From Escherichia coli (GTDB lineage Bacteria; Pseudomonadota; Gammaproteobacteria; Enterobacterales; Enterobacteriaceae), in assembly GCF_002854065.1 (NCBI RefSeq), contig NZ_CP024148.1: a stretch of DNA of 62,585 nucleotides. One strand, written 5' to 3'. Shown piece after piece: positions 51,401-60,400 of the stretch; position 1 is the first letter of the stretch, and each line of letters starts with the position of its first letter. The position numbers are program-made.

Positions 51401-54400
51401 TAGTCAGAATACTTTTGTTATTGACAATGGCGCATCTACATTTTTACCGTTAATTCAGTATTTCAATGATAACTGTGTTATGGACATGTTTGAAGATGTA
51501 GAACAAGACGTTTATATCCATACTGTTATCGTTGGTGGACAAGCTCTTGCGGATACCTTGCAGGGATTTGAAGAACTGAAAGAACTGGTTAAAGGAAGTA
51601 AGGTAAAACTTATTGTCTGGATAAATGAATTTCAGGGTATTCCAGCACTTGAAAATATCCCATTAATAGAAACTAAATTCATTGAAAAAAACAAGGATGT
51701 AATCGCTGGCGTTGTGGTTATTCAGGACAGAAAAAGTGATGCCTTTGCCTCTGACATCAAAGAGCTAACAGAAAAATCACTAACACTGAAAGAAGCTCTT
51801 GAGTCCGACCATTTTGGATTAATGGCTAAATCACGATTAAAACGAGTCTTCAATGACATTTACAAACAATTAGATAGCATCTATGACGATGAACACGGTG
51901 AATAATATGAGTACAGTTAATCAGCCAGAATTAAAACAGCCTGAAAAGGCTGTTTCCAGTGAAGATATTGATAATTTTATTGTTGATGTATTCAAGGAGA
52001 CAGGGCATAAAATATCAAAAGATGATCCAGTTATTTCATTAATTTTTCTGAACCAAAAGATACAGGAAAAATTCAGCAATGAGTTACAAGCTAACTTCAC
52101 AGCCCTGTCTGAGGGCTTCAGACAGGTCGTTTCATCTGTAGAAAATGACTATATTCAAAGATTCAAGAATATTGTTGAGACGTGCGGCGATCTGGATAAT
52201 GAAATAAAAGAAAAAGTAGAAGAGGGAAAAAACGATCTAAAAGAAACAAGTATTGAGGTAAAAGAAAAATTAACAGATGATATTATTGAACTCATATCTG
52301 GAATTAAACGCAACCAGGAAAAAAACAACAAATTATATGAAGAAAAGTTGAAGTCATTATCTAAGGCTGTAAAACCCTTCAGTACAAGAACAGCCATTGC
52401 AATTTGTGCCTTGTGCACATTATGCCTGTCTGCGGCATTTTCTGGCGCAACCTGGTATGTTGCACAACATGAAAAAGAGGCAAGCCTGCGCTTCTATGCA
52501 AGAGCTTTTCTTGATATGAAAAAAATAACTGAAGAGAGCATGAGAAAATTACCAAAATCAGACCAGCAAAATATAAAACTCAAACTAGACGAAATTGATT
52601 CAAGAAAACCATAGATATGAAAAGGAGTCACTAATGACAACTTTTACCGACGACGACAAGAAACTAATTAAAGAAATCAGGGAGCGAATCGGCAGCCTGG
52701 ACGTGCGAGACAATATTGAGCGTCGGGCTTATGAAATTTCTCTGGCATCGCTGGAAGCAGAAGCGCCAAATTTGCCTGGTGGTTTCACAATTGAAGAAGC
52801 AAAAGAATTACACGAAAATCTGGTAAAAAGTCACGTAAGCAAGGCTTTAAGTGGCGAAAAAATGAAAAAAGAAAATCGTGATGCCGATTTGCGCTGGATT
52901 CATGGCGTAATAGTTCAGGCTGCGTGGTTTGTGAAAGCATCACTAGGGCAGAACGCATAGTGCGTACCTGCTTTTCTCCTGGCAACGGTGGATCTTCCGC
53001 TTCCTCGTCGCTCGCTCGCTATGCTCGGTCGCTGGACTGCGGCGAGCGGTTAGCTATCAAAAAAAATCCCCGCACAACGCGGGGATAGTTTTATTTATAT
53101 GCAAGTTCATGACGTGCCGCCTGAGCCAGAAAATGGCTACGATCTTTGTATACGCCACCACTTTCTCTCACATATCCATCAATACGACGAATCAATACAT
53201 CAGGCAATGAAATATTAATACGTTGTTGTTTGCCCTCAATTTCTGACAAATCAACATCAATTACAAACCAGCTATCACAGTGGTTATAATTTGGGTTGGC
53301 GGAATAAGTCAAACACCCTTCATCATGAATATCATCAACAGAATGAGCACCGCTTATTACCATCTCTTCCACGATTGCCAATATCGCTTCACGCGCCATT
53401 GCGGGTATTTCTGCCTGAGAATCAGCAGCAGAAACACATCCAAAATCAAAGCAATCAAAAACCGGAACGGTGATACCGTATGCTGTATGATCATCTTTCG
53501 GTGTTTCGACACCAACAGAAAAGAACATGGCTACCTCCAAAGTCGGCGGGGATTAAATCCCCGCCATTTTTTTGATCGATCTGACAGTACCTAGCGGCAA
53601 GTCCTTTTTAGGATGAGGAACAGGAAAAGTTTTTCCTGTTATTGGCGACCACCATATCTGGTGACTGCTTGCCTTATGCCGTTTCAACTCGCAACCAGCA
53701 GCTATCAGTTCTTTCAACAGGTCAGCAGATTTCATATGTCCTCCCTAACCTGAAAACAATTATACACACGCATACATACAAAAGCAAATTATTTCATTCG
53801 TATGACTTATGAAACACACTGTAAAGACAGTTCAATCTTTACAGTGTAAATCATTTATCCAGTTTTATCGCTATGCATGTGATACATAGAAAATCATATA
53901 GTGTTTTACTATATGATACCTGATTGACACTTTTAACTGCACATCTCATCATTTACATCGTAAAGACAAACATAGCTTTACAATGTAAAGCTATGTAATT
54001 AAACACTCCGTGTCCCTGATAAGGAAAAAAAATGGCTCAACCAACCCCAGAAAAGATACTGGCAATCATAGATGATCATGATCGCGCACAAAAAAAACAA
54101 CGCAACAAAAACGTCTTCATTTATTTATGTCTCTGCTTGGCAATTATTGGAGTGGTCGCGCATTCCTTTATATCAACGTTTCGTCTTGATGGTGTAGCCG
54201 TCCTTACAATTCTTTTGGGCGTGTCAGCAATCGCATTTTTTCTACATTATGTAGAATCAGGGAAAGGCCAGATTCTTAGCAGTGACCGCATATTGTCCAT
54301 ACTCGCTCAAACCAAAGATTACCCCACAATTCGACGTAAAGTTGTTAATCGCTTGCTCTCCGGTTCAAAACTCACGGGTAAAGATGAAGAGTACATATTC

Positions 54401-57400: not shown

Positions 57401-60400
57401 ATTTGAAGGTAAACGAAAGCAAAGACCAGACTCACCATTTTCATCAAAACAGGCAAAGTTCTTTGCGCCTGTCATAGCAATAAAGCGGTTTCCACCAAGC
57501 TGATTAAGAATTTCAGTAGCAACAAATTTGGCGTGGTTTTCCATTTTTAAGCTCCTGCCGCTGAGCGGCTTTGGTGATTGGGGACCATCCCCTCTCGATG
57601 TGTTTATAATAGGTCAGAACTGACCTATTATCAAGTATTTTTTCCTCCTTTCTTTAAAATAAATATCGTTAAATACAAATATTTACATTCATGCAATGCC
57701 CGGCAGGGCATAGAAGGGGCGAAAGAAAATACCAGGGAGCAGCGGGGCCACATCGCCCCGAAGCGCGGCGCAGCCGCTGACGAACATACCAGGATGCACA
57801 GGGCCATCCCTTCGCCCTGCAAAGCCAGGACAGACCAACAGGCCATGATAATGCTGATTTGCGCCGCAGAATGCCGCAGTTAGCGCGAGCGCCAGCGAGT
57901 TTACGCCGTCCTGGTGCATTGCAGCAGGGCGGGGCGCTGTACTGCGCGTGTGAGCGTCAGCGAGCTACGGGCGCAACATTACATTGCTGCATTCGCCTGG
58001 CATTCTCCACGCCTTGAAGGACGGAGTTTTACTGCGCACCAGATAAAAAAAGGGGCGATTAAGCCCCTGTATTCACTATTAACAATTTAACATGGTTGCA
58101 GGGGATACCCCCTGCAACTATTTTCTTAGTAGTATGATGTGAACTCGTGTTTTTCTTCCGGTGATGCTTTATATGCTGTTTCGAATGACTCAATTTCAAT
58201 TGCTGGCGTACTGTAATAATCACGCACTCGCCGTTTTAATGGCTCACCACAGAAATCATTGAGTAATGGGGTCTTATATCCGCTCATTGAATGGGTCCGA
58301 TGAACCGAAGCGCGAATCTCCTGAACAGTTACGGTTTTTTTGCCATGAACAGAAATAACCTGATAGAAATTAACGTTCGTTTGCTCATATCCCCAGGAAG
58401 ATACAAACACATCGCCAACAGAAACAGTGCCGTTATTAAAAGTTAATGTTTTCATTTTTATCTCCTGCCGCTGAGCGGCTTTGGTGGTTGGGGACCATCC
58501 CCTCCCGATGTGTTTATAATAGGTCAGAACTGACCTATTATCAAGTATTTTTCCCTCCATTCTTCAAAAAAACACCATCAAATACATATAGTTACATTCA
58601 TGTGATGCCCGACAGGGCATGGAAGGGGCGAAAGAAAATACCAGGGAGCAGCAGGGCCACATCGCCCCGAAGCGCGGCGCAGCCGCTGACGAACATACCA
58701 GGATGCACAGGGCCATCCCTTCACCCTGCAAAGCCCAACGGACTGACAGGCCATGATCATGCTGATTTGCGCCGCAGAATGCCGCAGTTAGCGCGAGCGC
58801 CAGCGAGTTTACGCCGTCCTGGTGCATTGCAGCAGGGCGGGGCGCTGTACTGCGCGTGTGAGCGTCAGCGAGCTACGGGCGCAACAACACACCAGGCAAA
58901 ATCGCATCCTGAAAAGTTACCCTGTAACATACACACAATGTAAAGCGCAAAAAACAATTACATTGTAAAGACACAAACATCTTTACAACGTAACTATAAT
59001 GAATACAATGTAAAGACAAATAAACCTTTACACTGTATATCCGAGGTTTCTATGGGGAGAGCATTACTTGTCGCATCAGATAAAGGCGGTGTAGGAAAAA
59101 GCACCACAGCAACAAACCTGGCTTCTTATCTGGTAAATAATTCACGAACGGTCATCATTCTGAAGACCGATAAAAACAATGATATTCTTAGCTGGAACGA
59201 AAAAAGAAAGCAGAATGGCTTATTACCGGTTCCTGTTTATGAAGAGTATGGCGATGTATCAGAAGTCATTAAGCGCCTGAAAAAAATATGTGAAGTGCTG
59301 ATCATTGACTGTCCAGGGCATGACAGCAAGGAATTTCGCAGTGCCTTAACTGTAGCTGACATTCTGCTTACTCTCGTTAAGCCGTCTTCAGATTTCGAAG
59401 CAGAAACGCTGACTCATGTAACAGAAAAAGTTCGCACAGCTCAACAGATCAATCCAGACCTGCAACCCTGGGTACTTTTCACGAGAATTAACACGACAAA
59501 ACCACGCCACAGAAAAGCAGCGATTGATCTCGACAAGTTACTCCGGGAGAACCCGGTGTGGATACAGCCACTTCGTACACGTATTTCAGATTTAGATATT
59601 TTTGAAGCGGCCTGTAATGAAGGCGCTGGCGTTCATGATGTACGTCGCGCATCCAGCCTTTCTACAGCTAAAGCACAAATAGAGCTTTTGGCGCAAGAGT
59701 TAGGCATCAATCCCTAATGGATGTAATACGACAGCTTTACATCATTAACTTTACACAGTAAAGCTAATGTAACACACGAAAGGTGATATAATGGCTCTTG
59801 ACTTGAAAACTCCGGTAATACCAGGACAAAAAACAGAACAAACCAATGCAGACACAGCCCGATTCATCAATGAAGCTACCCGCAAAAAATCGGGAGCAAC
59901 TAAAGTGACCAATGTCCGGCTTGGGGACGTTTACGAAGATATTCTGGAACGGGAAGCACTGCGAACAGGCCAGACAAAAACAGCAATAATGAAAGCGGCT
60001 CTTGCAGCTTACGAACACGGCCTGGACGAAAACGGAAAAAATCACTGGATTCTACAGTCAGCCAGGCTGAAATGATAAAGCCCTTCGGGGCTTTATCCCT
60101 TACGTTTTAATTGTTTCTTCTCGCTGGCTTTCTTACGGGCATCGAGAACCAGTTGCGCATAAGTTGCGTGTGCTTTTTTTACTGTACCAGCAGGTTTCCC
60201 GTAAAGGTCGTAACGTGTTGCGCCTGGTACAGTACAATTCTGAAGATATTGCCACCGGAACGTCATCACCTGAACCGCACAATTCCACTCTTCAATCGTC
60301 AGATCCACATCCGGGTTATCCGCCAGGTATTTCTCAACGTCCTGGAGAATCCCGCTTTTCAGGGGCAAGTTCTTTTTTTCGTCTGTCCATAGTTCAGGAA

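Follow-up and report, generated by a model that had tools for sequence, protein, structure and literature searches.

Repeat clusters, genes and promoters of the leading region

The window analyzed here, 62,585 nucleotides of Escherichia coli DNA, represents an IncI2 plasmid whose region of interest was 100% identical to pGZ49273 and pEG430-1. Its leading region, on the non-relaxase side of oriT (50367-50733) and 3-9 kb away from it, contained five clusters of short inverted repeats. The clusters and the genes and promoters next to them are as follows:

53812..53851, unstranded: cluster 1, two 15-bp units 25 bp apart, 53812-53826 AAACACACTGTAAAG and 53837-53851 CTTTACAGTGTAAAT
53924..53952, + strand: predicted sigma-70 promoter of orf147, TTGACA-17-CATCAT, 10/12 matches (consensus match only)
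53951..53990, unstranded: cluster 2, units 53951-53965 ATTTACATCGTAAAG and 53976-53990 CTTTACAATGTAAAG
54032..54475, + strand: orf147, 147 aa, two transmembrane helices predicted
54957..54996, unstranded: cluster 3, units 54957-54971 CACCACACTGTAAAG and 54982-54996 CTTTACAACGTAAAG
58931..59040, unstranded: cluster 4, five units at 58931, 58956, 58981, 59001 and 59026 (steps of 25, 25, 20 and 25 bp)
58982..59009, + strand: predicted parA promoter, TTTACA-16-TACAAT, 10/12 matches
59052..59717, + strand: parA, 221-aa small Walker-type ATPase with KGGVGKS and without an N-terminal DNA-binding domain
59735..59763, unstranded: cluster 5, two overlapping-phase units 14 bp apart, 59735-59749 CTTTACATCATTAAC and 59749-59763 CTTTACACAGTAAAG
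59791..60075, + strand: RHH gene, 94 aa, starting 73 bp after parA

Cluster 1 was located in the intergenic region between hicA (- strand) and orf147 (+ strand), 77-116 bp upstream of the hicA start codon, and its inverted-repeat arms of 19 nt were 84% complementary. Cluster 2 began at the final bases of the predicted orf147 promoter -10. Cluster 3 adjoined a 70-nt fragment of a ~430-bp leading-region repeat, and neither it nor cluster 1 overlapped a predicted core promoter. Cluster 4 spanned roughly -75 to +35 relative to the predicted parA promoter, with the -35 hexamer within unit 58981 and the -10 hexamer within unit 59001, and cluster 5 was contained in the 73 bp that separate parA from the RHH gene. 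Thus, the statement in the first-pass annotation that two clusters flank the parA/RHH pair has to be corrected: one lies upstream of parA and the other between the two genes, and only a terminator hairpin was found 3' of the RHH gene.

Structure and frequency of the motif

The same annotation had described the five clusters as inverted pairs of TGTAAAG/CTTTACA, and all five proved to be real and correctly placed. Exact TGTAAAG heptamers occurred 18 times in the 62.6-kb window, 13 of them inside the clusters. The bare heptamer was only weakly enriched (18 versus 9.4 expected, a count reached by 1 of 100 shuffles); it makes up one half of a palindromic 15-bp unit, CTTTACAnTGTAAAG, which was present 13 times in the five clusters with a step of 25 bp, except for one step of 20 bp and one of 14 bp. 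Units scoring 12-14/14 were confined to the clusters and absent elsewhere on the plasmid, and the only perfect one (14/14) was the right-hand unit of cluster 2. As about 33 15-mers scoring 10-11/14 are expected per window, such units are unremarkable singly and are credible here only because they are in phase with units scoring 12-14/14.

The structured pair GTAAAG-N10-CTTTAC was found five times (at 53821, 53960, 54966, 58965 and 59010), whereas the mean was 0.013 in 300 first-order Markov simulations covering the whole window, and not one of 2000 simulations from the local 6.7-kb composition produced it. Local base composition, which had been named among the conditions that would undo the earlier proposal, therefore does not account for the motif. 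When a 24-bp pattern was allowed up to three mismatches, the whole plasmid yielded just those five sites, all between 53.8 and 59.1 kb.

The ParA and RHH proteins

ParA matched the CbiA, MipZ and AAA_31 domains, aligned over its full length with NF041546 ("ParA family partition ATPase"; 102 bits, below the 180-bit cutoff), and its residues 8-217 aligned with ParF (4dzz; E 5e-5). It has the features of the small Walker-type ATPases of type Ib partition systems (~190-230 aa, deviant Walker A, no N-terminal DNA-binding domain).

The N-terminal tail of the 94-aa protein is conserved (KLKxP...ARFI); the rest comprises a beta-strand (KVTNVRL), two helices and, at the C-terminus, an additional helix. 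Its match to Pfam RHH_1 (E 0.003) was below the gathering score, and a PDB sequence search gave no match at E up to 10. The AF2 model had a pLDDT of 78 (88-95 in the core), and the best Foldseek match was CopG (1ea4; target-normalised TM 0.81, rmsd 1.6 A), followed by Arc, PutA and NikA, with E of ~1. The RHH assignment is thus statistically soft, and there is moderate support for a small RHH-fold centromere-binding protein directly downstream of parA, as in type Ib systems. The third feature of such systems, a promoter-overlapping array of short repeats upstream of parA, is represented by the five phased units at 58931-59040, which have counterparts in 11 homologous loci.

Occurrence of the motif and the ParA-RHH pair in other plasmids

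The RHH family was small and uncurated, comprising 49 clusters among 1.8 billion representatives. We compared 11 other loci in which an RHH gene (25-58% identical at the protein level) followed a small ParA: those of IncX3, IncX5, an Edwardsiella plasmid, a Salmonella Berta plasmid, a Klebsiella aerogenes plasmid and six metagenomic or draft-genome contigs. Repeats with an ACAnTGT core were present in the non-coding DNA around the ParA-RHH operon of every homologue pair examined, and the density of ACAnYGT cores in par non-coding DNA was 5-20 per kb in all 11 loci versus 0.2-1.4 per kb elsewhere in each locus. IncX3, IncX5 and the Edwardsiella plasmid had the flank TGTAAAGAC in common with the window, arrays homologous to cluster 4 upstream of parA, and the pattern xTTTAC-N3-RTAAAK-N5-RTAAAG-N10-xTTTAC in the parA-RHH gap. 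IncX3, with an RHH protein 56% identical, shared both the exact motif TGTAAAGAC and the spacing rules of IncI2 (RTAAAG-N10-CTTTAY and CTTTAY-N3-RTAAAG). More distant RHH lineages kept the core but had changed flanks (TGTAAATAC, TGTATGTAC, TGTGCGCAC or TGTAATACA); no simple residue-to-base covariation between beta-strand residues and flank variant could be observed across the lineages compared. In IncX1, RHH homologues followed parF-parG rather than this ParA, their N-terminus was replaced and such arrays were lacking, a contrast which argues for a link between the RHH N-terminus and ParA.

IncX3 also had a distal cluster ~5 kb away from par, which directly preceded the extended -10 (TGgTATAAT) of a leading-region operon encoding a DnaJ-domain protein. 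In the S. Berta plasmid, all TGTAAATAC sites were inside 1.7 kb around par. Within IncI2, clusters 1 and 4 were conserved in the diverged plasmids L007 and L008, in which orf147 was also flanked by clusters 2 and 3. The left unit of cluster 2 had lost its right-hand part, including the GTAAAG half-site, to a 13-bp deletion in L007. Cluster 3 was located between convergent genes in L007 and L008; in L023 it preceded the promoter of a second hicAB pair by ~100 bp.

A putative type Ib partition cassette

The motif family travels with the ParA-RHH pair. Of the two binders suggested earlier for these centromere-like or operator sites, the 94-aa RHH protein and another global repressor, this comparative evidence favours the former. 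Judging from sequence comparison, the motifs are probably the cognate DNA sites of this protein, and ParA, RHH and the repeats would together form a type Ib partition cassette. The IncI2 sites are most likely a new, uncharacterised case of a well-known type of plasmid segregation, with cluster 4 as the proposed principal centromere/operator. Several observations count against this reading. The RHH assignment is soft, clusters 1 and 3 overlap no predicted core promoter, and flank variants did not covary in any simple way with beta-strand residues. The 25-bp spacing (~2.4 helical turns) offers no obvious same-face layout for cooperative RHH dimers. Deletion of the CopG-family gene orf00050 of pHNSHP45, which we equate with the 94-aa RHH gene on account of its number adjoining that of pcnR, changed the reported readouts of host growth and fitness little (PMC8053102).

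A rather unlikely alternative is that functional par sites are limited to clusters 4 and 5. On this view, recombination among the repeated modules of the leading region would have spread copies that serve neither a selected regulatory nor a centromere role, and the distal clusters (cluster 3 above all, perhaps cluster 1 too) would be such copies. The fusion of cluster 3 to a piece of the leading-region repeat points in this direction, and so does a further copy in pKPC_CAV1596-78 and in a 37.5-kb IncI2 derivative, which consists of the repeat end and an internally deleted cluster 4; since a recombining leading-region repeat accompanies both cluster 3 and the additional pKPC_CAV1596-78 copy, some copies may be passengers. 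The 37.5-kb plasmid appeared to carry its copy without parA-RHH, since just 43 bp of the par query were matched. The convergent-gene position of cluster 3 in L007 and L008 and the restriction of S. Berta sites to the par neighbourhood also fit this explanation. On the other hand, the GTAAAG-N10-CTTTAC cores of clusters 1-3 were perfect in IncI2 lineages whose surroundings were only 87-89% identical, cluster 2 is exactly at a strong predicted promoter, and IncX3 independently has a promoter-located distal cluster. Moreover, intact copies would still bind or titrate the protein.

A second explanation, in which a different DNA-binding protein of the plasmid, such as HicB or the Xre-like HTH protein (56096-56359), uses the sites as operators, seems improbable. 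HicB carries a C-terminal RHH domain of its own (RINISLP...FLAQAARHEL, from translation), cluster 1 is upstream of hicAB, and in relatives cluster 3 precedes a second hicAB pair. However, the IncX3 plasmid examined had dense par arrays of the same motif with no hicAB or Xre gene annotated, and the S. Berta plasmid had a hicAB module with a near-identical promoter and no such sites at hicAB. In addition, hicAB of the window has a separate perfect palindrome at 53893-53917 (ATCATATAGT-N5-ACTATATGAT), which overlaps the distal predicted hicA promoter and is a better candidate for the HicB operator than the clusters. HicB was thus rejected as the primary binder.

Slightly less probable still is the view that the inverted repeats act as hairpins, either in the transferred single strand (priming or ssDNA-promoter-like) or in RNA, rather than as duplex protein sites. 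The distance from oriT and the non-relaxase side would suit such a role, ssDNA folding was better than that of shuffles (z-scores -1.9 to -6.6), and three clusters were flagged as terminator-like by a simple scan. However, good folding follows trivially from the clusters being inverted repeats, and the hairpins are AT-rich with stems that are invariant in sequence rather than covarying. The same half-sites also occur in IncX3 seven times as 11-bp direct repeats, which are unable to pair, and arrays in other plasmids are found at par loci regardless of their relation to oriT. Finally, a chance product of AT-rich intergenic composition, to which the merely twofold excess of bare heptamers might point, was already refuted by the simulations and the whole-plasmid pattern scan, and the recurrence of motif and spacing in unrelated plasmid backbones leaves it practically no likelihood.

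Assuming that the RHH protein is the binder, its dimers would insert a beta-ribbon into the ACAnTGT core, and the AAAG/CTTT flanks would make binding more specific. Cooperative assembly across the five units of cluster 4 would cover the -35, -10 and start of the parA promoter and repress the par operon, resulting in autoregulation. The same complex would serve as the partition complex, engaged by nucleoid-bound ParA-ATP via the conserved basic N-terminal tail of RHH. Cluster 5 would extend this complex, and the distal pairs (clusters 1-3) would provide additional loading sites. Among these, cluster 2, directly at the transcription start of orf147, should repress this gene, which is its most plausible target and whose product gave no match in a family search; cluster 1, in the hicAB leader or upstream region, may modulate hicAB, and for cluster 3 no target is obvious. 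In an RHH-free cell newly entered by conjugation, the repressed promoters would fire transiently. The earlier idea of a global repressor of the leading region fits well for clusters 2 and 4 alone, through the orf147 and parA promoters; clusters 1 and 3 overlap no predicted core promoter.

Comparison with known systems

The delta/omega/parS system (type Ib) of pSM19035 resembles IncI2 in having a small ParA and an RHH centromere-binding protein, and in binding sites that double as operators and are dispersed at several promoters kilobases apart, including that of a toxin-antitoxin operon, as proposed for the IncI2 RHH (in part after PMC9499535 and PMC3074150). However, omega uses contiguous 7-bp heptads (WATCACW), whereas the IncI2 sites are 15-bp palindromes 25 bp apart, and sequence similarity between omega and the 94-aa RHH was not detectable. 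The omega operators are at partition, toxin-antitoxin and copy-control promoters; the IncI2 sites are at parA, beside hicAB and at orf147, and no site was found near the replication-control genes repA or pcnR. Only tentatively can we suggest that the RHH proteins of IncI2 and IncX3 are omega-like master switches, which would combine a multi-site centromere of distributed 15-bp palindromes over ~6 kb with leading-region genes (orf147, hicAB and the IncX3 DnaJ-domain operon) that are silent in established cells and transiently expressed after conjugative entry.

In TP228, ParF could be aligned with IncI2 ParA over the full length (4dzz), ParG is likewise a small RHH centromere-binding protein with a flexible N-terminal tail, and parH, like cluster 4, is an array upstream of the ATPase gene that overlaps its promoter. 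In contrast, the repeats of parH are ACTC tetramer boxes separated by AT-rich spacers of 4 bp (PMC3130281). ACTC boxes were observed upstream of IncX1 parF but not at IncI2 par. With a sub-threshold RHH_1 match only, and neither a ParG model nor a PDB sequence match, the 94-aa RHH was ruled out as a ParG homologue.

The par2 system of pB171 consists of ParA and ParB with two centromere clusters, parC1 and parC2. It is similar to IncI2 in being type Ib, in that its ParB is an RHH protein and in that several clusters of short repeats surround the operon; its repeat sequence and layout are different, and the extra clusters of IncI2 are 4-5 kb off, beside unrelated genes. KorA/KorB of IncP-1 and StbA/ArdK of R388 form global repressor networks of conjugative plasmids. 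Like the proposed IncI2 RHH, they involve a partition-linked DNA-binding protein, operators at several maintenance and establishment promoters, and transient post-transfer expression. However, these are HTH proteins with other operators, whereas IncI2 has sites at only two or three extra promoter regions, where regulation is putative.

Significance

The par system of IncI2 has been termed "putative" (PMC8053102), and the IncX3 genes have been named parA/parB with no described centromere (PMC9485871); we found no description of centromere or regulatory sites for either family in the literature. Conceptually, the gain is one further type Ib system and no new principle. For testing, the analysis offers a precise map of the five clusters and their 13 units, together with the family-wide core ACAnTGT and a candidate protein, and this should ease the design of incompatibility-based curing, stability assays and regulon tests. 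IncI2 (mcr-1) and IncX3 (blaNDM) plasmids are major resistance vehicles. With roughly one copy of pHNSHP45 in each cell (PMC8053102), this plasmid should depend on active partition to persist.

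Structure and statistics of the repeat clusters

The five clusters of inverted TGTAAAG/CTTTACA motifs reported in the first-pass annotation (clusters 1-5: 53812..53851, 53951..53990, 54957..54996, 58931..59040 and 59735..59763) proved to be real. The structured pair GTAAAG-N10-CTTTAC was found five times (53821, 53960, 54966, 58965 and 59010), far above the 0.013 occurrences expected from Markov simulations of the window, and local base composition failed to explain this frequency, as 2000 simulations restricted to the surrounding 6.7 kb produced no pair. The bare heptamer was only about twice as frequent as expected, with 18 exact copies in the window, 13 of them inside the clusters. 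A search of the whole plasmid with the 24-bp pattern, allowing up to three mismatches, returned the same five sites and nothing more. The ACAnTGT core alone was not enriched plasmid-wide (22 observed versus 19 expected); its informative part is the clustering and the flanks only.

Alignment of the five sites revealed conservation beyond the heptamer (aCAnTGTAAAGACA-N7-CTTTACAnnGTAAnn), and the motif is best described as a 15-bp palindromic unit, CTTTACAnTGTAAAG. Thirteen units were located, at 53812, 53837, 53951, 53976, 54957, 54982, 58931, 58956, 58981, 59001, 59026, 59735 and 59749. Units scoring 12-14 of 14 were confined to the clusters; the weaker ones (10-11 of 14) were unremarkable singly but in phase with the strong ones. 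Eight of ten steps measured 25 bp; one measured 20 bp, and the step within cluster 5 measured 14 bp. Because the conserved half-sites of the 25-bp pairs are the inner ones, the arrays had first been read as TGTAAAG...CTTTACA. An ACA located 11 bp after each left half-site is also conserved. A phasing of 25 bp (approximately 2.4 turns) fits a wrapped or spiral complex better than dimers aligned on one face. Separately, degenerate GTAATAC/GTAAATAC copies occurred at 54470-54530, 55003-55011 and 59720-59728, beside clusters 3 and 5 and downstream of orf147, a predicted membrane-protein gene. They match flank variants of distant family members (L019, a metagenomic or draft-genome contig, and L006, an S. 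Berta plasmid) and may be weak or relic sites.

Genetic context and predicted promoters

Many IncI2 plasmids of 60-64 kb, among them pGZ49273 and pEG430-1, matched region 53500-60200 with 100% identity; their hosts are E. coli, Shigella and Salmonella. pRHB16-C08_3 was set aside, being only an IncI2 fragment split by a Tn7-like element. The gene order was as follows.

Features of the region
45715-50028, minus strand: relaxase gene
50025-50366, minus strand: mobC
50367-50733: oriT-type intergenic region
after the oriT-type region: traL
53091-53540, minus strand: hicB
53553-53735, minus strand: hicA
54032-54475, plus strand: orf147, predicted membrane protein
54582-54848, minus strand: second hicB, truncated (88 aa, Pfam HicB)
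between truncated hicB and parA, minus strand: several small genes in a row, each with a copy of a ~430-bp repeat ahead of it
59052-59717, plus strand: parA
59791-60075, plus strand: gene of the 94-aa ribbon-helix-helix (RHH) protein
60093-60689, minus strand: pcnR (ProQ/FinO)
beyond pcnR: hok/sok, then repA
60998-61169, minus strand: sok antisense RNA of hok/sok (Rfam RF01794, 98 bits), the sole Rfam match in the window

From this order, the distance between oriT and the clusters is 3-9 kb, and the relaxase gene is on the other side of oriT. This placement is consistent with their earlier assignment to the leading region, judged by the usual organisation of MOBP plasmids. The mobC/oriT intergenic region also carries at least nine ACCCACA-type repeats (50520-50660), a family separate from the TGTAAAG units and possibly relaxosome accessory sites. 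The truncated hicB has no hicA partner in the window; at its position, pEF5-18-41_4 and similar relatives carry an intact IncX4-like hicAB with its own TTGACA/TATAAT promoter.

Promoter predictions, which are consensus matches only, placed cluster 4 across the predicted parA promoter, with the -35 (TTTACA, 58982-58987) in unit 58981 and the -10 (TACAAT, 59004-59009) in unit 59001. Cluster 2 starts at the end of the -10 of the predicted orf147 promoter (53924-53952, 10/12). Cluster 1 separates the hicA start from a distal predicted hicA promoter (53936-53908, minus strand) and is upstream of a proximal candidate identified by eye (TTGCTT-17-TATAAT, ~53790-53763, minus strand). Cluster 3 overlapped no predicted promoter. 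Cluster 5 had no convincing promoter of its own among the predictions, which makes co-transcription of the RHH gene with parA probable.

The RHH protein as the likeliest binder

ParA is a 221-aa ParF-like ATPase. The 94-aa protein matched RHH_1 below threshold, and the best fold matches of its AF2 model (pLDDT 78) were CopG, Arc, PutA and NikA, with weak E-values; a sequence search detected no relatives of solved structure. A word-indexed protein search returned near-identical proteins only, and diverse relatives were recovered by an exhaustive profile search of 1.8 billion representatives, which revealed a small family of 49 clusters (50% identity). Its members share an N-terminal KLKxP...ARFI tail, an xNxRL-type strand, a GQxKT turn and an extra C-terminal helix. 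In one member from this search (P0019, 166 aa), a single polypeptide combines two tandemly fused RHH modules.

Within IncI2, the intergenic regions are too similar (90-96% identical) for phylogenetic footprinting to be informative. We compared homologues 25-58% identical, from IncX3 (L003/L013), IncX5 (L004), an Edwardsiella plasmid (L005), the S. Berta plasmid and a K. aerogenes plasmid (L009), together with six metagenomic or draft-genome contigs (L014, L015, L017, L019, L020 and L021), 11 loci in total. In all 11, the RHH gene followed a small ParA gene, and ACAnTGT-core repeats crowded the non-coding DNA upstream of parA and the parA-RHH gap, often downstream too. Core density was 5-20 per kb in par non-coding DNA versus 0.2-1.4 per kb in the remaining locus. 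The TGTAAAGAC flank was common to IncI2, IncX3, IncX5 and the Edwardsiella plasmid. Other lineages kept the core with the flank TGTAAATAC/TGTATGTAC (L006, L009, L015, L017, L020 and L021), TGTGCGCAC (L014) or TGTAATACA (L019). IncX3 showed the same spacings as IncI2 (RTAAAG-N10-CTTTAY four times, CTTTAY-N3-RTAAAG three times) and, additionally, seven 11-bp direct repeats; these and the ACA at 11 bp hint at further dimers occupying the gaps between units. A recognition code, in which Asn or Thr at the Arc N11-equivalent beta-strand position tracked a G or T in the flank, held in the first six loci only and was dropped: L014, L020 and L021 have Asn, yet GCGCAC or AAATAC flanks.

Three controls were considered. 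First, in IncX1 (L010 and L011; 2429-2740) an RHH homologue follows parF-parG rather than this ParA, with unrelated sequence in place of the N-terminal tail; there were ACTC boxes upstream of parF, but no ACAnTGT arrays nearby. These features suggest that the N-terminus is the part that interacts with ParA. Second, the hicAB proximal promoter of the S. Berta plasmid is near-identical to that of the window and has no RHH-type sites; every such site on that plasmid lies within 1.7 kb around par. Third, hicAB of the window has a separate perfect 10-bp inverted repeat (53893-53917, ATCATATAGT-N5-ACTATATGAT), distinct from the TGTAAAG units, which overlaps the back-to-back predicted hicA and orf147 promoters and may serve as the HicB operator. 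The RHH protein is the likeliest binder, given that the motif family tracks the protein family.

Distal clusters and recombination

Evidence for a function of the distal clusters was mixed. Their cores remain perfect in IncI2 lineages with 87-89% identity in the flanking DNA, a predicted promoter lies at cluster 2, and IncX3 independently has a distal cluster (pM216_X3, 1348-1389; GTAAAG-N10-CTTTAT-N5-CTTTAC-N3-GTAAAG), ~5 kb from par and just upstream of the extended -10 (TGgTATAAT) of a leading-region DnaJ-domain operon running towards oriT. On the other hand, cluster 3 is fused to a leading-region repeat fragment and lies between convergent genes in two diverged IncI2 plasmids (L007, pKPC_CAV1596-78, and L008). 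Moreover, a duplicate of the repeat end plus cluster 4, internally deleted, occurs attached to a leading-region repeat downstream of a DnaJ-domain operon in pKPC_CAV1596-78 (~10330-10395) and in a 37.5-kb IncI2 derivative (L026, 2501-2543), where it persists apparently without parA-RHH. The fusion and the extra copies indicate that recombination probably spread some cluster copies.

The ~430-bp repeat has four copies (55560-55990, 56880-56965 (partial), 57560-57990 and 58470-58890). Each contains the 26-bp palindrome ATAATAGGTCAGAACTGACCTATTAT, which overlaps a promoter predicted on the minus strand (TTGATA-17-TATTAT); a GC-rich segment is present in the three full copies, and a small minus-strand ORF lies downstream of every copy. 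More than 1000 plasmids match parts of this region. The repeats look like Frpo/ssi-type leading-region promoter modules that recombine and carry cluster-4 copies along.

Implications for IncI2 partition

IncI2 par has been named only as putative (PMC8053102), and reviews of IncX3 name parA/parB with the centromere undescribed (PMC9485871). We found no characterisation in literature on IncI2/IncX partition, centromeres or CopG regulators, and the motif string matched only primers and unrelated sequences. Deletion of the CopG-family orf00050 in pHNSHP45 hardly affected the growth or fitness of the host (PMC8053102); we take orf00050 to be the RHH gene because it is numbered next to pcnR.

The anatomy of the sites, their restriction to these clusters on the plasmid and their association with the RHH family were observed directly, whereas binding, stoichiometry, repression and centromere activity are inferred. 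In the mechanism proposed here, RHH dimers would recognise the 15-bp units. Dimers coating the parA promoter at cluster 4 would serve two ends, autoregulation of the operon and assembly of the partition complex that ParA-ATP engages. At the distal pairs, bound dimers would keep orf147 repressed and might also modulate hicAB; after transfer, this repression would be lifted for a short time. The first-pass suggestion of centromere or operator sites for the RHH protein is the best-supported reading. The IncI2 system is best placed among the type Ib partition systems, as an uncharacterised member that has a predicted RHH centromere-binding protein, a distinctive site architecture and, possibly, extra operators like those of omega.
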